Below are positions 40,428-60,527 of a DNA stretch of 64,000 nucleotides, piece by piece. This DNA comes from an uncultured Bacteroidales bacterium (lineage in GTDB: Bacteria > Bacteroidota > Bacteroidia > Bacteroidales > GCA-2748055): assembly GCA_963764345.1 (NCBI GenBank), contig CAVXSF010000008.1, positions 206,706-270,705 of the forward strand, read 5' to 3'. The first letter of the stretch is position 1. Every line of letters begins with the position of its first letter. The notes beneath the pieces were generated by a model. It had not been told where the DNA came from and did not search any database. It was given only the letters and a program-made list of their open reading frames with translations. The position numbers and the translations under genes were made by a program.

Positions 40428-40491
40428 AGTTGTTTAATTGTTGAGTCGTTTAGTTGTTTAGTTGTTTAGTTGTTTAGGTGTTGGTTCAGGG
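40428..40491. repeat. 8-nt tandem array (AGTTGTTT-type, about 8 units)
   Basis: agttgttt aattgttg agtcgttt agttgttt agttgttt agttgttt aggtgttg, starting 7 nt after tRNA-Gly. Confidence 0.9.
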
Positions 40492-40952
40492 TTCATGCTT
40501 TGCTACGCAGGACTGGCAGGATTAATTAACCTTGAACTGATAATACATGATTGATCCAATCCCCCTTCCTGCAAGAATATAATTATTTGCAATTTCGATC
40601 ATCCGGTTCTTTCAAAAGCTGCACAACAATGATCAATCTTGAATTATCGGTAAGCAGTTCCTTCGATCCGGTACTTCCATGGTCTCAAACTAAAGGGCAG
40701 CCTGCTGTTCAAGATCCGACCAGGAATTTTACTCTGAATATATATTGTTGTTGAAGAAATAGACGAAACTGTTTTTTAGATTGAGTTATTACCGGAATCA
40801 GGAATTTCTTAGAATTTAAGTACAGATGATCTGAAAACAGAAGCCTAAAGACCTTTACGTATATTCGCCTCCTCTCGTAAATATGTAAAAAACAGACTTG
40901 AAGCCAGGAAAATATAACATTTGACTTTGTTACAACTTAAACCATTTCAAAT

Positions 40953-41008
40953 CAACGACTTAACAACTCAATGACTCAACAACTCAACAACTCAACGACT
41001 CAACAAAT
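40953..41008. repeat. 8-nt tandem array (CAACAACT-type, about 7 units), reverse complement of the 40428 array
   Basis: caacgact taacaact caatgact caacaact caacaact caacgact caacaaat, ending 7 nt before tRNA-Leu. Confidence 0.9.
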
Positions 41009-43359: not shown

Positions 43360-43622
43360 AAGAATTCAAATTAATGGTTAAAAAGAAATTCAGAAATATA
43401 AATCTGATATTATTATTGTTCAAAAATAACTAAAATGTAATTAATAATGGCATAAAAATTACATAAAATAAGATAAAACTAAGTTTTACTTACGAATAGT
43501 TATTTAAAGGCTAAAATATTTACGATTTGTTACCCGGAGAAGGGTAAATGGTTGTTCCAGCTTATACTTTATAAGATGGTTTGATGGCAGGCCGGAGACG
43601 ATAGTTTCCGGCACTGCAATAT

Positions 43623-43678
43623 AGTTGTTTAGTTGTTTAGTTGTTTAGTTGTTTAGTTGTTTAGTTGTTTAGTTGTGT
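43623..43678. repeat. (AGTTGTTT)x7 tandem array
   Basis: Six perfect units plus one variant (agttgtgt), in the asnB / ECF-sigma divergent intergenic region. Confidence 0.95.
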
Positions 43679-43685
43679 CTGGATA

Positions 43686-43762
43686 ACCCCTAACTAATCC
43701 CTAACCCCTAACCCCTAATCCCTAATCCCTAACCCCTAATCACCAACCCCTAATCCCCTCCA
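43686..43762. repeat. 7-nt tandem array of CTAAYCC units (about 10), telomere-like CCCTAA-type; the minus strand is G-tract-rich
   Basis: cccctaa ctaatcc ctaaccc ctaaccc ctaatcc ctaatcc ctaaccc ctaatca ccaaccc ctaatcc. Confidence 0.9.
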
Positions 43763-50807: not shown

Positions 50808-51716
50808 TTAGCCTGCATTTTCTTTTTCGCTGATCTTCTCCAGAAAATGTACAAAATCAATGGCACTATCCATCATCCTGACATTATGTGGAAGGCCCTC
50901 TTTCACCGGGTCGGGATCGAAAGTGGAAAAAAGAATGATCTGATCGGGAAATTTCCTGGACAGTTTATCGAGGTATGTCCTGAAGTTGATCCCGGAAATA
51001 TTGGAGCTCAGGGATGTAATGAGATAATCGCAGGGTCTGATCTCCACCACTGCCTGAAGGTCATTGAAGGGGACAGACTGACCCAGGTAAATGACCATGT
51101 TGCCTCTTTTCTTGACCAGGTAATAGTAGAACAACAGGCCGATTTCATGAAGTTCCCCTTCTGGGAGAAAGAGAACAAAGCGTTTGCTGGGTTTATTGGG
51201 TTGGTCTTTATCCATGATGCCATCGATGGCAACAATGAGCTTCTGCCGCACCAGGTTGGAGATGAAATGTTCCTGGGCAGGGTTGATAGCCCCGGTTTGC
51301 CAAAGGATCCCGATTTTCTGAAAGAAAGGGTAAACGGTATACAGGATGGTTTTTTCAAATCCTTCCTGCATAATCTTTCTCGATAATATTTTTTCAAACT
51401 TCTTCTCATCCAGCTCTATCATGGCAATCACCAGGTTGTCAATCAGACTTTCTGTGTCTTGATTCTGCCTGGAAATCTCGTTAATTTTTGAGCTGATCTC
51501 TTCGTTACCCAGGTTGGCAATATGGCTTATTTTAAGCCCGTTACGGTTTAGCAGGGCTACGTTCAGTACTTTTTTCAGATCCAGATCATCGTAGAAACGG
51601 ATATTCGTATCCGTTCGTTTCGGTTCCAGAAGGTTATACCTCTTTTCCCAGATTCTAAGGGTATGAGCCTTGATGCCTGAGATTTTTTCAAGATCCTTGA
51701 TAGAATAGTTTGACAT
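50808..51716 (-). CDS. MerR-family regulator with a C-terminal cobalamin-binding domain (CarH/LitR-like)
   Basis: MerR HTH (YSIKDLEKISGIKAHTLRIWEKRY) and a B12-binding-type Rossmann region with LPEGELHEIGL (E/DxHxxG-like). Confidence 0.75.
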   Translation of the reverse strand: MSNYSIKDLEKISGIKAHTLRIWEKRYNLLEPKRTDTNIRFYDDLDLKKVLNVALLNRNGLKISHIANLGNEEISSKINEISRQNQDTESLIDNLVIAMIELDEKKFEKILSRKIMQEGFEKTILYTVYPFFQKIGILWQTGAINPAQEHFISNLVRQKLIVAIDGIMDKDQPNKPSKRFVLFLPEGELHEIGLLFYYYLVKKRGNMVIYLGQSVPFNDLQAVVEIRPCDYLITSLSSNISGINFRTYLDKLSRKFPDQIILFSTFDPDPVKEGLPHNVRMMDSAIDFVHFLEKISEKENAG

Positions 51717-51824
51717 ATCAAAATTCCCCGGTAAGATGCGGTGTTCAGGACATCGCGAATCCAAATTATTTTGCTAAACTAACAAATTTTGTTTAAAAAA
51801 GTTTATGGAAAGTTGAACATAATG

Positions 51825-51951
51825 GAGGGAGGGGTGAAGAAGTGAAGAAGGTAGAGGTTGGAGGTTGGAGGTTAGAGGTTAGAAAGTTAGAGAGTTAGAA
51901 AGTTAGAAAGTTAAGAGGTTAAGAAGTTAGGAAGGGAAGAGGGGGAAGGAG
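51825..51951. repeat. Stack of purine-rich 7-8-nt tandem blocks (GTGAAGA, GGTTGGA/GGTTAGA, GTTAGAAA, GTTAAGAR)
   Basis: ggtgaaga agtgaaga .. gttggag gttggag gttagag gttagaaa gttagaga gttagaaa gttagaaa gttaagag gttaagaa gttaggaa. Confidence 0.9.
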
Positions 51952-52410
51952 GAATGATCCTTTGAATTGTATCTTCCCAACCGAGGAGCGGTAGCCCATG
52001 CATAGCCACAGAAAGTTAGAAAGTTAGAAAGTTAGAAAGTTATGGAGTTAAGAGGTTAAGAAGTTAAGAAGGGAAGAGGGGGAAGGAGGAATGATCCTTG
52101 GAATTGTATCTCCCCGAACCGAGGAGCGGTAGCCCATGCATAGCCACAGAAGGTTAGAAAGTTAGAAAGTTAGAAAGTTATGGAGTTAAGAGGTTAAGAA
52201 GTTAAGAAGGGAAGAGGGGGAAGGAGGAATGATCCTTGGAATTGTGTCCCCCGAACCGCGGAGCGGTAGCCCATGCATAGCCACGGTTTTGCCCGTGGTG
52301 GTTATGACCGGTGAAAGACGCAGGGACGAAAAGGAAAAAGAATAATCCCTGGAATCGGTCCCCCGAACCGCAGAGCGGTAGCTCATGCATAGCCATGGTT
52401 TTGCCCGTGG
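51873..52410. repeat. About 138-bp tandem repeat, three full units plus one partial core copy, each with a microsatellite head and a conserved ~60-nt core
   Basis: The unit ends ..CATGCATAGCCACAG at 52011 and 52149 and ..CCACGG at 52286, giving periods of 138 and 137. Core: GGAATGATCCTTGGAATTGTrTC.CCCGAACCGnGGAGCGGTAGCCCATGCATAGCCAC. A partial core lies at 52337-52398. CCAYGG-TTTTGC-CCGTGG hairpins lie at 52281-52298 and 52393-52410. Confidence 0.9.
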
Positions 52411-52854
52411 TAGGAATGGTCGTCGTTCCAGGGAACCCGGGAAGGCTTCAATAATCGTATCCAGGTTTTTTGATTGTGGTGGGAATGCCCGGAATTTCTG
52501 CGTTATGATGGGGAGTTCATCATGATTCCAGACAATTCCGGAAACATCGCGAGGAAAATTTCATTCCTGTTCAGAAGCCCCGAAATGGTCCTATACAAAA
52601 AAGGACTGAAATATTCTTGCAGTGAAGGAAAAAAATATGTATTTCGGCTGGCATTCGTCAAAATGAGAATCATCATTTTGGGTGAGTTGATAACTTTTCG
52701 TCAAAAAGGTAAAAACAGGACGCTGAGATTTGGGGGGTTGAAAGGATTAAGGGGCGGTGTGTTGGAAGGTGGGGGAGGGATCCCATTTCAAGAAAAGACA
52801 TCCTTAGAATAACGAAGCCCCTTACTCTGCCCCGACGTTAATACTCCTTCTGAG

Positions 52855-52906
52855 TCCTTCGAAATTCAGATTCACCACAGTCCTTCGAAATTCAGTTTCA
52901 CCACAG
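52855..52906. repeat. 26-nt direct repeat x2 (TCCTTCGAAATTCAGwTTCACCACAG)
   Basis: Two adjacent copies that differ at one position. Confidence 0.85.
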
Positions 52907-52943
52907 ATCCCGATAACTATAAAGGACAGATTATCACAGATTA
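52899..52943. repeat. About 45-nt ACAGAT-rich element, copy 1
   Basis: CACCACAGATCCCGATAACTATAAAGGACAGATTATCACAGATTA. An inverted copy lies at 56731-56773. Confidence 0.75.
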
Positions 52944-53080
52944 CCGATTGTTGTCGGTACAGTATAAACAGATTGGGTATCCAGTTTTTTTATAGACGCG
53001 AAGCATCACGTCTCAACGATTTGGTTTTTCATTCAATATTCAGATCTCCTTTCTCCGTATCATTCGATATTCTATTTCAA

Positions 53081-53285
53081 TCTCTCAATCTCTCAATCCC
53101 TCAATCCCTCAATCCCTTAATCCCTCAATCCCTTAATCCCTTAATCCCTCAATCTCTCAATCCCTAACTCCCTAACTCCCTAACTCCCTAACTCCCTAAC
53201 TTTCACCTTTCACCTTTCACCTTTCACCTTTCACCTTTCGCCTTCACTCTAACCCCTAACCTCCTAATCCTAACCCCTAACCTCC
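53081..53285. repeat. Stack of four pyrimidine-rich tandem blocks: TCYCTYAA x10, TCCCTAAC x5, TTTCRCC x6, TAACCYC-type x5
   Basis: Read directly from the sequence. The array ends 8 nt before the stop codon of the methyltransferase gene. Its reverse complement gives GGTGAAA / GTTAGGGA / TTGAGGGA, the same motif families as 51825-51951. Confidence 0.95.
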
Positions 53286-53292
53286 TCCGCCC

Positions 53293-53944
53293 TCACTTCT
53301 TCCGTATCACCATCAGCCCGTCACGTAACGGAAGGATAAAATTTTCCACCGCCGCATCCCCTGTAACATACGCGTTGAAAGCTTCGATACCTAGCGTGGC
53401 TGAGTCTTTGTTTTTGCCGGGGTCGAGGACTTTTCCATACCAGAGAACATTATCGGCAATAATGATCCCACCCGGGGAAAGTCTGGGCAGCACAAGTTTA
53501 TAATATTCGACATATTCTTCTTTTTCGCCGTCGATGAAGACCAGGTCGAAGGTGTCGTTTAGGTTGGGGATGAGTTTCAGGGCATCACCGTTAATCCTTT
53601 TGATCTTTTCCGTCCAGTCCGGCCTTACGGAAAAAGCCATCGCTTACGTCGTTGAGTTCGTCATTGACTTCGAGGGTGATCAGTCGGCCATCGTCTTTCA
53701 GTCCGCGGGCCAGGCATATGGCCGAGTATCCGGTGAAGGTCCCGATTTCCAGGATACGTGAGGGCCGGACCAGCCTGCTGACAAGCTCCAGAAGTTTACC
53801 CTGTACCGGTCCAGACAGCATGGAGGGGAAGGCGGTATTCAGACCGGTGAATCTTCGGATTTCCGCCAACAGCGGATCTTCAGGAGACGAGTGTGCTTCG
53901 ATATACCGGTTCACAATATTTGTGGATTCAAATTGTTCCATCAT
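53293..53944 (-). pseudogene. Class I SAM-dependent O-methyltransferase (family 3, caffeoyl-CoA-OMT/YrrM-like), frame broken in a T4/A4 run at 53606-53609
   Basis: Track ORFs 53591..53944 (..ILEIGTFTGYSAICLARGL..FFRKAGLDGK) and 53293..53640 (IKRINGDALKLIP..DLVFIDGEKEEY..GGIIIADNVLW) join into one standard OMT if 1 nt is removed. Confidence 0.8.
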
Positions 53945-56773: not shown

Positions 56774-56790
56774 GAAAAGAGGAGGTTTAC

Positions 56791-56970
56791 CCTGGCCGGC
56801 TCAATCACTCTTGCGCCAGATGCCTTGAAACTACCGGGGCTATCCCGGAAATGATGATGAAGGAATGGGAATACGGAGTAGGCGGGGCGAGGATGAAATG
56901 CCGGAGGATTTCATCTGCCGCTTGTAATCAGTATGCAACAGCCTCCGGCGATATCATCGATCATATGACT
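56791..56970 (+). pseudogene. Decayed fragment of a dienelactone-hydrolase paralogue
   Basis: CCCTGGCCGGCTCAATCACTCTTGCGCCAGATGCC...GGATGAAATGCCGGAGGATTTCATCTGCCGC aligns with 60004-60140 of the intact gene (CCCTGGCCGGCTTTATCAGTCTGGCCCCGGATGCC...GAATGAAATGCTGGAGGATTTCATCGCCGCC). The fragment has no intact reading frame. Confidence 0.65.
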
Positions 56971-57021: not shown

Positions 57022-59287
57022 CTAAAATTCATCGAACGAAATCATATTTTCGGGAACGCCGAGGCCTGCCAGCATTTTCGTCCCTGCCTCAATCAACGCA
57101 GGCGGGCCGCAAAGGTAATATTCAACCTCACCGGGATGTTTATGGTCCTTCAGGTATTTTTTCAGTAATACCTCGTGAATAAATCCTCTGTCACCATGCC
57201 AGTTGTCATGTTTGCCGGGTTCTGACAAGGCCGCATGAAAGGTAAAATTATCGTTGGTTTCAGCCAGATTTTTAAAATAGTCATCGTAGAAAAGATCATC
57301 CAATGTTCGGGCTCCGTACCAGAAACTCACCTTCCGTTTCGTTTTCAATGATTCGAACAGGTACGACACGTGTGACCGGAGGGGCGCCATTCCAGCTCCT
57401 CCGCCTAAATAAACCATCTCCCTGTCCGAATCTTTGATGTAAAAATCACCGTAGGGTCCTTTCAGCATTACTTCATCACCCGGTTTCAGGTTAAACACAT
57501 ACGAGGTCCCGATTCCCGCAGTGATGTTCCTGTCACCGGGCGGCAGGGAAATCCGCACATTGAACCGGAGCAGCCGGTCCTTTTCGGGATTATTCGCCAT
57601 GGAGAAGTTACGTTTTGTATGGATCGTATTCCTGGAAAAGCAGTCGAATAATCCCAGGTCCTTCCAGGTTTTATCATACGGATTATCAATCAGGATCTGG
57701 TCAAAAGTTATGTCAAACGGAGGGATCATCAATTGAATATATTCACCCGGCCTAAATGTGAAGTTCTTCTCTTCTAATGTTTCCAGGACAAGTTCTTTAA
57801 TAAAGGCTGCCACATTATGATTGCTCACCACCCTGAACCTTATTTCCCTATCCGTATCCGGGATGGAGGCTTTCTTTTTGCCGGAAATGTGCAGGTACAC
57901 CTTATCGTCATCCAGACTTACGTTAAACGTACGAATGGCAACACATGCCGGTATCCGTTTGGGAGACCCGTCTTTAATACTGAACCGGCCATTGTGTTTG
58001 GGGCACTCGATCAGGTCCCCGATAACCACTCCTTCAGCCAGATGGGCATTACTGTGGGAGCAAATACCGTCTGTGGCGTAAAATTTGTTTTCATCCGTTC
58101 TGTATATGGCATATGTTCTCTGGTTGAAATCAAAGCGGACCACATCTCCTTTTGGAAGGTCACCAATACGGCAAACTTCAATCCGGCTGTCCACCACCCT
58201 TGAAGGATCTCCCGTAATGATCTCCTTCTGTTCCATCTGGTGACCGGCGCCTTCAGGCAGTTTCCGTTCCACAAAATAGTATGGATCTTTCCGTTGCTTC
58301 AGGAGGGTGGGGATCATCTCCCGGTATACTTCAAGGATCCCGATATACGGCGTGGGGCAATCGTTCTTCACCAATTCATGCAAACGCGGGAGGGCATGAT
58401 AGGGTACAAGAGGGAACATATGATGTTCAACGTGGTAATTCATATTCCAGTACAAATACCGGTGCAGCCGGTTCATGTAAACGGTCCGGCTGTTCAGCCG
58501 GTGGTCAAGCACATTCTCCTGTAAACCGGCGTGTTGGGTTAACCCGTATAACTGTAACAACCATGAACCAAAGAGGGTCGGAATTCCAACATACATCAAA
58601 GGCAGGATGCTGCCGATAATAAACCGACAGACCGATCACACATAAAAATATGAGCATATAGATCCGTGCTTCGAGGATGATCTTCTTATAATCGGATTCA
58701 GGAACATAGGTTGCCACCTCAGGGTCTATTTTCCCTGCAATATGCCGGAATAACCTCTTTGCCTCGGGAATGGTACCACCCAGGCCAAAAAATCCACGTA
58801 TCACCTTATTCAAATTCGGAGGCCGCGGTACAGAAATCTCTGGATCACGACCCCTGATAATGGTATCACTGTGATGACGGGCATGGCTCCACCGCCAGGC
58901 AGTTGACTGCCTGAAAACCATAAATGAAGCGATCTTATATAAAAGATTATTCATCCAGTCCGTCTTGAAGGCGGTACCGTGACCCGCCTCATGCCACCTT
59001 GAATCGGAGGTGGAAGCATACAGTGTACTATAAATGATATAAGGAAGAATAAACCACCAGGTACCCCATAACAGGAAGACGAGGAAGCCTGAACCTATGA
59101 TAAGACCGAACCAGATGATCGTATCCCTGAGAGCAGGACCGTCTTTCCTGACCAGCAGCTCGCGCATTTTTTCCCTGGGAACAGGCGACTGATACCATTC
59201 TGCATCAGCCAGCCCTGCTTTTATCGCCTTTTTTGTTTCAACGCCAATCAGGCTGTAATCCCTGACCATTTCCTGAGTTTCTTCCAT
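57022..59287 (-). pseudogene. Fusion of a membrane di-iron fatty-acid-desaturase-family domain, a Rieske [2Fe-2S] domain and an NqrF/FNR-like FAD-NAD(P)H reductase; frame broken near 58615
   Basis: His boxes HEAGH and HARHH lie in ORF 58505..59287 and HVEHH in ORF 57022..58599. The Rieske motif is CSHSNAH..x16..CPKHNGRF. The reductase motifs are RNFSMANNP and GGGAGMAPLRSH. The two ORFs join at ..GLSVYY / GSILPLMYVGIPTLFG with a 1-nt shift. Confidence 0.8.
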
Positions 59288-59630: not shown

Positions 59631-60527
59631 ATGATTTCTATGAACACAATCAATAAGGAAAACATTCCTCAGGAAGTATTTGATCTGTATGACGCCTATG
59701 CTCATAACAAGATCGACAGAAGAAAATTCATCGACAGGCTCTCCACCTATGCAGTAGGAGGGATCACCGTAGGGGCTTTGATGAGTTTTATGATGCCACG
59801 TTACCAGGAAACAGTTCAGGTTAGTCAGGATGATCCAGGATTGACTACAGAATACGTTACCTATGAATCTCCCAAAGGCGGAGGCTCAATTCGCGGTCAG
59901 CTGTCGCGGCCAAAGAATGCAGGCGGCAGATTGCCGGGCATTGTCGTTGTTCATGAAAACAGGGGACTGAATCCGTATATCGCGGATGTAGGGCGCAGGC
60001 TTGCCCTGGCCGGCTTTATCAGTCTGGCCCCGGATGCCCTGACACCACTGGGGGGCTATCCAGGAAATGATGATGATGGAAGGGAATTACAGAGTAAGCG
60101 GGACAGGAATGAAATGCTGGAGGATTTCATCGCCGCCTTTGAATATCTGAAATCCAGTTCAGAATGTACAGGAAAGGTTGGTGTTGTCGGCTTTTGCTTC
60201 GGCGGCTGGATCACAAATATGATGGCCGTGAAAGTGCCTGACCTGGCTGCAGCGGTTGCATTTTATGGTGTACAGCCCTCTCCAGAATTGGTTCCTGAGA
60301 TTCATGCTCCCTTATTGTTACACTATGCAGCTCTCGACAATCGTGTGAATGAGGGATGGCCGGCCTATGAAGCAGCATTGAAAAAATATCACAAGGAGTA
60401 TACAGCCTATATATATCCGGATGTCAATCACGGCTTCCATAATGACTCGACACCACGGTATGATAAAGCTGCCGCTGAGCTTGCCTGGAAAAGGACCCTG
60501 GATTTCTTTCTGGAGAAATTGAAATAG
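59631..60527 (+). CDS. Dienelactone hydrolase family protein with a Tat-type signal
   Basis: Twin-arginine motif (DRRKFIDRLSTYAVGG), a VVVHENRGL region, nucleophile motif GFCFGG, and C-terminal HGFHN. Confidence 0.85.
   Translation: MISMNTINKENIPQEVFDLYDAYAHNKIDRRKFIDRLSTYAVGGITVGALMSFMMPRYQETVQVSQDDPGLTTEYVTYESPKGGGSIRGQLSRPKNAGGRLPGIVVVHENRGLNPYIADVGRRLALAGFISLAPDALTPLGGYPGNDDDGRELQSKRDRNEMLEDFIAAFEYLKSSSECTGKVGVVGFCFGGWITNMMAVKVPDLAAAVAFYGVQPSPELVPEIHAPLLLHYAALDNRVNEGWPAYEAALKKYHKEYTAYIYPDVNHGFHNDSTPRYDKAAAELAWKRTLDFFLEKLK

Follow-up and report, generated by a model that had tools for sequence, protein, structure and literature searches.

In a 64,000-nucleotide (nt) stretch of an uncultured Bacteroidales genome (assembly GCA_963764345.1, contig CAVXSF010000008.1, positions 206,706 to 270,705; hereafter, the window), we investigated a tandem repeat lying in a non-coding gap between a MerR/B12-binding regulator gene and an O-methyltransferase gene. 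We consider this region to be, with a probability of about 0.6, one copy of a lineage-restricted, non-coding, modular and minisatellite-bearing dispersed intergenic repeat. As we reconstruct it, such an element would comprise a C-free microsatellite head of 7-8-nt repeats, n tandem units of 112-121 nt with two hairpins each, and a tail of ~330 nt. The copies form a family dispersed over intergenic sites and are non-coding; they are present at orthologous positions in variable copy number, have mosaic tails and share a slowly evolving core.

The initial annotation of the window described a 138-bp repeat with three full units, each joining a microsatellite head to a hairpin-bearing core. Tandem Repeats Finder recovered this repeat at 51876-52284 (period 137, 3.0 copies, 95% matches, score 734), and the units measured 138, 138 and 137 nt when cut after CATAGCCAC. 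Since the window and its relatives are long-read metagenome assemblies with split genes, an indel error may account for the 1-nt difference in period. Units 2 and 3, judged by eye to differ at about five positions, differed at four, and units 1 and 2 at 12. The core pattern was found four times on the + strand (51975, 52113, 52250 and 52362, with core-to-core spacings of 138, 137 and 112 nt) and nowhere else in the 64 kb, against a chance expectation of 0 (100 shuffles). As had been noticed, the fourth copy (52340-52433) has no microsatellite head. The small hairpins were also present as described: the ACCG-N5-CGGT stem takes the form ACCG-AGGAG-CGGT in core copies 1 and 2 and its C:G-extended form ACCGC-NGA-GCGGT in copies 3 and 4, and CCAYGG-TTTTGC-CCGTGG is confined to copies 3 and 4.

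The core search of public genomes that was proposed at the outset showed that the core recurs in a related organism. Scanning one genome for each of 185,579 species with a 22-nt piece of the core yielded seven matching stretches, all in the metagenome-assembled genome (MAG) MFD02416.bin.1.410 of an uncultured Bacteroidales bacterium. Related loci, designated below by L numbers, were read as fetched pieces of 8-12 kb. Their comparison revealed a unit of 112-121 nt with two hairpins, of which the originally described core makes up the first ~59 nt; the consensus of the unit is GAATRATCCCyGGwAATCag-TCCCCCGAACCGCrGAGCGGTArCCCAyGCATAGCCACGGTTyTGCCCGTGGTGGkwATGAcCGGtGAAnGACGCArrGACGAmAAGGAAAAA. The basic unit of the family is thus 112-121 nt, not 138 nt. 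Units lie head to tail, with array sizes that range from 1 to at least 11 copies, at no fewer than nine intergenic loci. By nhmmer, five loci (L002, L004, L005, L006 and L007) carry arrays of two to three units, L003 and L008 carry at least 11, and L011 carries 11; the arrays of L002 and L008 run off the fetched piece, with their 3' ends outside the DNA seen. A purine-rich, C-free head of 7-8-nt repeats precedes each array, and the ~330-nt tail follows it wherever the 3' end lay within the fetched DNA; the elements measure 0.6-1.7 kb. Units were 90.5% identical within arrays and 85.2% between arrays, and the full unit of the window showed a mean identity of 86% (maximum 90%) to the units of the MAG. 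Some units in L003 (593-1178) and L011 (5926-7225) carry an internal 7-nt expansion, (ATGACCG)3, or an insertion of GGTGAATGAT; these expansions stretch the period from 112 to 118-121 nt, a microsatellite nested in a minisatellite.

All copies are intergenic, and their orientation relative to the neighboring genes varies among loci. Outside the element, the DNA flanks had nothing in common between loci, and neither did the flanking proteins, except for those of L004 and L012, which are alleles, and a coincidental pair of GH26 genes. The neighbors are ordinary genes, such as those for DnaK, GH26 enzymes, a sulfatase, a galactokinase and methyltransferases. About 120 kb of flanking sequence was scanned for partner and transposase genes; no transposase, recombinase or partner gene was found there. 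No open reading frame (ORF) runs through the arrays, no small ORF is conserved in the tail, and a coding repeat was rejected, as the arrays hold no long ORF and the period is not a multiple of three. When a translated array ORF was searched against a protein database, it retrieved nothing beyond spurious gene calls of its own assembly, and a tail ORF retrieved no match. Eight "hypothetical proteins" of 76-166 amino acids (aa) in NCBI and ENA (P0001-P0008) are minus-strand translations of arrays, that is, spurious gene calls, and L011 and L012 were reached through such "proteins" that gene callers had predicted from arrays. Two scans of viral contigs (IMG/VR) and a distant blastn search against plasmids and phages gave no match. 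L012 (1-1605) is allelic to the L004 locus, comes from the same metagenome and holds three head-unit-tail elements in tandem, and in L011 (5630-7518) two inverted tail copies, ~75% identical, flank the head and the 11-unit array.

Orthologous loci allowed us to compare copies of the element at one fixed site. Two such loci, L013 (from the same assembly as the MAG) and L015 (from another assembly), were found through two cluster mates (at least 90% identity) of the M16 peptidase encoded in the window. Gene order at both is as in the window, the flanks are 95-98.5% identical, and the element occupies the same gap between the O-methyltransferase and MerR/B12 genes in all three. It was therefore ancestral at this site, being present in the common ancestor of the three sampled strains. 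The modules differ in number: the head plus half-unit that makes up the 138-nt unit occurs twice in the window, once in L015 and not at all in L013; full 112-nt units number one, two and none, respectively; the terminal truncated unit occurs once in each, degenerate in L013; and a downstream hairpin module of ~100 nt is present once in the window, twice in L015 and three to four times in L013. The lengths of both microsatellite blocks also vary among the three. Given the counts of two, one and zero, the 138-nt periodicity is recent and strain-specific: the 138-nt unit is a duplication of a block consisting of the microsatellite and the first 59 nt of the unit. The head plus core had initially been proposed as the module itself; it turned out to be this secondary duplication, in which a generic microsatellite is fused to a unit cut just before hairpin 2. 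The M16 peptidase of the window was also compared with two L002 ORFs of equal length, to which it proved unrelated.

The tail (52534..52868, + strand) is a conserved non-coding module that also occurs alone, without an array, in a ~70%-identical copy (L002:5130-5368), and inverted on the far side of the array in L011 (7288-7518). It contains a near-invariant imperfect palindrome, ACTGAAATATTCTTGCAGTG (52604..52623, + strand), whose columns are invariant in the tail alignment, the divergent L002 copy included; the palindrome was also read as ACTGAAATATnnTTGCAGT. Within it, the box TATTCTTG (52611-52618, + strand) is similar to TAnnTTTG, the -7 element of Bacteroidetes, and faces away from the array. 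TAnnTTTG is exact in the tails of L002, L003 and L007 and has one mismatch in the other tail copies read, and the box may, judging from its sequence, act as a promoter; a sigma-70 promoter scan is uninformative for Bacteroidota. Downstream of the box, the 24-mer AGTTGATAACTTTTCGTCAAAAAG (52685..52708, + strand) is exact in the window and six further tail copies (L002-L007) and, like the blocks GGGACGCTGAGAT and ACGAAGCCCC, is invariant in the array-less L002 tail. A 16-codon tail ORF (MMISAGIHQNGCHHFG) was considered as a coding sequence and rejected, as it is not conserved.

The tail of the window is ~81% identical to the two orthologous tails, which are 95% identical to each other (flanks 95-98%), and its central ~85 nt, in a comparison over 52606-52836, matches the paralogue type of L007. 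The window tail is a mosaic, and these two observations indicate ectopic gene conversion. A conversion of the L013 tail from L006, also considered, was not borne out by the identity matrix; the window tail is the clear example of conversion.

These data suggest how such an element could change and persist. The motif GAATRATCCCyGGwAATC opens both the unit and the tail and thereby provides direct repeats for recombination. Modules would gain and lose copies through replication slippage or unequal recombination between their own direct repeats, and paralogous copies would exchange sequence through ectopic gene conversion. Upkeep could resemble that of the BrickBuilt, BOX and bacterial interspersed mosaic element (BIME) families compared below, with a trans-acting protein (transposase-like, nucleoid or regulatory) recognizing the palindromic core; alternatively, the family may have spread recently, its uniformity being kept by conversion. 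Any effect on the host would be local, exerted by the promoter-like box of the tail, which faces away from the array, and by hairpins in read-through transcripts.

Several observations weigh against a dispersed repeat of this kind. All three orthologous loci are occupied and none offers an empty site, so mobility is deduced solely from the dispersal. No short terminal inverted repeats are common to the head and tail ends, L011 alone having a second, inverted tail; the tail end (…ACGAAGCCCCTTnnTnTGCCC) has no inverted counterpart at the head end, which is microsatellite. No direct repeats indicative of a target-site duplication are evident at the boundaries, which the microsatellites blur, and the distal boundary of the tail differs between subfamilies. 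The loci were seen as fetched pieces rather than as a whole genome, and a partner gene may sit elsewhere. Units are only ~90% alike within arrays; the arrays are therefore not very recent expansions and have been retained. Finally, the core evolves slowly, including its GCCCATGCATAG segment, which pure "junk" would not predict and which points to a sequence-specific function.

This constraint on the core was quantified across units. The non-consensus fraction was 1.6% in stems, 7.1% in loops, 7.1% in the rest of the core and 13.6% outside the core. Nearly invariant columns made up 26 of the 34 core columns tested, compared with 13 of 62 elsewhere (Fisher p = 2e-7; the 20 columns that served to find units were omitted). 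The conservation extends to GCCCATGCATAG, an unpaired segment of the 54-nt core, and conservation of paired and unpaired positions alike would suit sequence-specific recognition better than structure alone. The early view of the repeat as a module rather than the product of drift is accordingly upheld in so far as the repeat belongs to a dispersed family (at least nine loci) with a conserved hairpin center, and finds no positive support in its RNA-structure part.

Because the core is conserved, we give a functional role, as RNA or as protein-binding DNA taken together, about one chance in three. Were the role that of an RNA, arrays and/or tails would be transcribed, either as a 112-nt structured module (a protein sponge, or one processed from a multimeric precursor) or as a tail small RNA of ~230 nt driven by the TAnnTTTG-like box, with the array as an upstream element. 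We regard this as unlikely. It would agree with the strong conservation of the hairpin core relative to the rest of the unit, with loops that vary while stems do not, with the invariance of the tail box ACTGAAATATnnTTGCAGT and of the three blocks downstream of it in the array-less L002 copy, and with an excess, on the + strand, of C-to-T changes preserving a G.U pair over G-to-A changes (about 7 to 3, counted from sequences). The cores also include one compensatory change: in L011, a G:C pair of hairpin 1 has become A:T, and L008 shows an A.C intermediate. Yet RNAalifold on 34 units returned only the two hairpins, without a compensated pair, and a covariation term of +0.06, so that the covariation check suggested at the start came out at about zero; on the tail it gave a weak consensus fold without support and a slightly unfavorable term of +0.51. 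In 42 distinct cores, 97.4% of cells were paired, 11 held wobble-compatible one-sided changes and 13 were unpaired. The C-to-T wobble first cited as evidence for pairing is just one of those 11 cells, set against 13 that break pairing. Shuffles equalled the pair statistics in 122 of 500 and 77 of 500 trials, the stems varying little. Folding energies were unexceptional: full units scored z = -0.4 and -0.8 on the + strand, a half-unit scored +0.8, and the minus strand folded better (-1.9). A terminator scan found no intrinsic terminator. Rfam, also proposed initially, gave nothing relevant: two tRNAs only for the whole window at gathering thresholds, and two chance-level hits only for 51700-53400 at E <= 10. 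Half-units in the window do not include hairpin 2, and the single degenerate unit left at L013 means that the array is dispensable there. Thus, there is no positive evidence for a selected RNA structure, and stem variation is too small for a real test. A long-range P1 helix closing the unit (TCCCTG...CAGGGA), noticed by eye in the window copy, is not kept elsewhere and is absent from the RNAalifold consensus. A tRNA or transfer-messenger RNA origin was rejected, in agreement with the original statement that the repeat is neither a tRNA fragment nor a CRISPR (short palindromic repeats that are clustered and regularly interspaced) array.

Were the role exerted by the DNA itself, the unit could be an array of binding sites for a dimeric DNA-binding protein, a recombinase or a transposase of the HUH/RAYT type (RAYT, REP-associated tyrosine transposase; REP, repetitive extragenic palindromic sequence), with three palindromes in a row (ACCGC-NGA-GCGGT, ATGCAT and CCACGG-N6-CCGTGG) and the tail palindrome as a second site. 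This has, in our view, a slim chance. The joint conservation of paired and unpaired core positions speaks for it, as do the direct tandem intergenic arrays in both orientations relative to genes and the GTAG seen at the foot of hairpin 1; GTAG is likewise found at the foot of REP hairpins. On the other hand, the scanned flanks encode no candidate protein, units of 112 nt are far longer than REPs or iterons, and all units are direct, unlike the doublets of BIMEs and of REP doublets forming hairpins (REPINs). That units and tail make up a lineage-specific functional system, be it a multi-copy tandem structured RNA that is transcribed and processed, a tail small RNA or a set of high-affinity sites for a protein, with the core under purifying selection, strikes us as quite doubtful. 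A degenerate CRISPR-like array, or an antitoxin RNA array of a type III toxin-antitoxin system (ToxI-like), is scarcely credible. Tandem direct repeats do stand beside a conserved A/T-rich flank at several loci, but the whole 112-nt period is conserved (at 85-92%), leaving no unique spacers; neither cas nor toxin genes adjoin any array; the units exceed ToxI or CRISPR repeats threefold in length; the number of units shifts at a fixed orthologous site without added new sequence; and the arrays lead into the non-coding tail and unrelated genes. It is highly improbable, too, that the repeat is a long-read assembly artefact or an amplified fragment of a decayed gene. The assemblies do carry frameshift-type errors, but three independent assemblies place the element at one and the same locus, and its more than 50 copies vary coherently. 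The gene-fragment version, in which hairpin 2 would derive from the HHGQNRGYG motif of a GT2 glycosyltransferase, draws on the only match in JGI metagenome contigs: the 24-nt hairpin 2 pattern matches a GT2 gene in two contigs (L009 8461-8496 and L010 723-758), at its HHGQNRGYG motif, and the likeness extends over hairpin 2 and its 3' flank to 34/39 nt. The two near-identical stretches amount to one independent sequence, from an unrelated high-GC organism, the likeness does not go beyond 39 nt, and no reading frame is conserved in the unit; we judged the match to be due to chance.

At the locus in the window, the gap that holds the element spans 1,576 nt, from the start of the MerR/B12 gene (ATG at 51716, minus strand) to the stop of the O-methyltransferase gene (53293, minus strand). 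Directly upstream of the MerR/B12 start lies head 1 (51822..51950, + strand), composed of the C-free microsatellites GTGAAGAA, GAGGTTG, GTTAGAAA and GTTAAGRR and ending in GGGAAGAGGGGGAAGGAG; equivalent heads precede the arrays in L002, L004, L005, L006, L007, L011 and L012. The head is followed, all on the + strand, by half-unit 1 (51951..52009), the duplicated microsatellite block of head 2 (52010..52087), half-unit 2 (52088..52147) and the duplicated block of head 3 (52148..52225). Half-unit 1 covers unit positions ~1-58, with hairpin 1 only (ACCG-AGGAG-CGGT), is cut after CATAGCCAC and matches nhmmer model positions 13-56, or 1-58 in another search. The sole full unit of the 112-nt type (52226..52339, + strand; nhmmer E = 3e-25, model positions 3-109) contains, in order, hairpin 1 (ACCGC-GGA-GCGGT), GCCCATGCATAG, hairpin 2 (CCACGG-TTTTGC-CCGTGG) and GGTTATGACCGGTGAAAGACGCAGGGACGAAAAGGAAAAA. 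The terminal unit (52340..52433, + strand) has hairpin 1 as well as hairpin 2, the latter containing a T.G pair, and GGTCGTCGTTCCAGGGAACCCGGGAAGG takes the place of the unit's 3' part; this variant recurs in L005, L013 and L015. A spacer of ~100 nt (52434..52533, + strand), common to the paralogue L005 and the orthologue L015, leads from the last unit to the tail.

Beyond the tail, a downstream module (52853..53035, + strand) is built from a direct repeat of 26 nt, repeats of the CACAGATTA type and the hairpin AGACGCGA-AGCA-TCACGTCT. It represents a second repeat family, the one whose copy number varies from one to three or four among the orthologous loci. Members of this ~100-nt family, consisting of CACAGATTA-type 9-mers, GGGTATCC, a T-run and the 8-bp hairpin AGACGTGA-AGCA-TCACGTCT, lie at 52853-53035 in the window, at L003 1827-2006 and L005 6640-6775, and in the intergenic regions of L013 and L015. 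The gap closes with the right-hand microsatellites (53077..53304, minus strand; + strand motifs TCAATCCC, CCCTAACT, CTTTCAC and CTAACCC), whose minus strand lacks C and whose orientation is inverted with respect to the head; they adjoin the O-methyltransferase stop.

The microsatellites follow a consistent geometry. In the window and the loci alike, every array of 7-8-nt repeats has one strand that lacks C. Read 5'->3', this C-free strand leads from the edge of the nearest gene or tRNA towards the intergenic center in all ~13 testable cases, irrespective of the gene's strand. Such arrays lie at 40428-40482, 40948-41006, 43622-43757, 51834-51942 and 53077-53304 in the window, and at L002 319-382, L003 1673-1702 and 6503-6622, L004 736-838, L005 5838-5961 and 6820-6924, and L007 1665-1709. 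At 43622-43757, the two arms are separated by 17 nt that hold no other element. In the segment 40349-41101, tRNA-Gly(GCC) and tRNA-Leu(TAA) are 592 nt apart, and the edges of the gap are inverted microsatellites, AGTTGTTT x7 after tRNA-Gly and CAACTCAA x7 before tRNA-Leu, around an interior of ~465 nt. As the C-free strand always points inward, long intergenic regions look like islands between inverted, non-identical arms, which is what one would expect if repeats were added to 3' ends at a break, or in a new kind of insertion.

We also recorded features of nearby genes. The O-methyltransferase of the window (Methyltransf_3, 53293-53944, minus strand) is split into two overlapping ORFs (53293-53640 and 53591-53944) and is an intact 216-aa gene at both orthologous loci; the split reflects either a genuine frameshift or an indel error in the long reads. 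A gene for a fatty-acid desaturase/Rieske/NAD-binding fusion (57022-59287, minus strand) is likewise read as two ORFs, at 57022-58599 and 58505-59287. In L013 it forms one gene of 754 aa, and in L015 it is similarly split; the splits in the window and L015 suggest assembly indel errors. In addition, an intergenic segment of ~140 nt (56783-56921) is ~86% identical to an inner part (59997-60136) of a DLH-family hydrolase ORF (59631-60527) and looks like a copied gene fragment.

If the region is indeed one copy of a minisatellite-bearing dispersed repeat, it adds a well-delimited case from uncultured soil or sediment Bacteroidales to the few known in bacteria (BrickBuilt, MITEPgRS and BOX). The three orthologous loci would then provide direct comparative evidence that every module behaves as a variable-number tandem repeat and that paralogues exchange sequence. 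Loci of this kind are in practice markers for strain typing, as well as hot spots for misassembly and spurious gene calls. The unusually slow evolution of the hairpin core, or the inverted geometry of the C-free microsatellites, could point to a hitherto undescribed protein-nucleic-acid interaction.

Compared with known systems, the element shares with CRISPR and ToxI arrays the tandem direct repeats beside a conserved flank, but it lacks spacers as well as cas or toxin genes, and its unit is much longer; we rejected the comparison. For the head and right-hand arrays only, a closer parallel is offered by the short tandemly repeated repetitive (STRR) sequences of cyanobacteria and by TAACTGA repeats, the latter being intergenic heptamer arrays of Beggiatoaceae, Cyanobacteria and some Bacteroidetes whose function is unexplained (MacGregor 2015, PMC4679880). 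Like these, our arrays consist of 7-8-nt tandem intergenic units beside start or stop codons, are strand-asymmetric with stops in all frames, differ between strains by indels in whole-unit steps and have no known function. They differ in their motifs (GTTAGAAA, GTGAAGAA, GGGTTAG and others) and in forming C-free inverted arms around long intergenic regions, one arm being joined to the 112-nt array.

REPs are 20-40 nt long and usually form inverted doublets, BIMEs alternate in orientation, and RAYT transposases are associated with them. The element resembles the REP/BIME/REPIN group, which is conserved through protein recognition, in its palindromic, hairpin-forming intergenic repeats set in arrays and in the GTAG motif beside a hairpin. 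Its units of 112-121 nt are, however, all direct, no RAYT was seen in the fetched flanks, and the element falls outside this group. BOX elements of Streptococcus pneumoniae (Firmicutes) have the structure boxA-boxB(n)-boxC with modules of 45-59 nt and number more than 100 per genome; they are predicted to form stable hairpins, encode no transposase and can affect the expression of neighboring genes. In architecture, the sequences themselves not having been compared, our element is likewise a set of dispersed intergenic modules, the central one tandemly iterated between distinct ends, with predicted hairpins and no encoded transposase. It differs in its microsatellite head and 330-nt tail, as well as in taxon and module size. 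BOX elements are reportedly treated by Martin et al. in 1992 and Croucher et al. in 2011.

BrickBuilt and MITEPgRS/MITE464 of Porphyromonas gingivalis, named after MITEs (miniature transposable elements with inverted repeats), are intergenic elements of leader, minisatellite and tail, with 19 copies per genome and promoter activity in their flanks (Klein et al. 2015, PMC4596501). Their internal repeats are units of 23 or 41 nt, 1-23 per element, and their ends are 12-nt terminal inverted repeats of the IS5 insertion sequence (IS) type common to resident ISPg elements, with some target-site duplications (PMC4596501). No sequence similarity to BrickBuilt was apparent by eye, no search having been made. 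The element described here further differs in that promoter activity is demonstrated there and only inferred here, in its leader, which is a microsatellite and not unique sequence, and in its two-hairpin unit of 112-121 nt, which is five times the length of the BrickBuilt repeat. It is, as a MITE would be, short, non-coding, multi-copy and intergenic, with a leader-tandem-tail layout of variable repeat number; no parent IS sharing its ends was found, nor any transposase in the scanned flanks, and its status as a MITE is not demonstrated. The likenesses to BrickBuilt are nonetheless extensive: both belong to the order Bacteroidales, are confined to intergenic DNA and exist in multiple copies (19 per genome there, at least nine loci here); both join a leader, a spacer-free tandem minisatellite and a tail, with 1-23 repeats there and 1 to at least 11 here; and in both some copies are without a flank and the host range is one species group. 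In kind, the element thus appears to resemble BrickBuilt/MITEPgRS most, with BOX as a second parallel.

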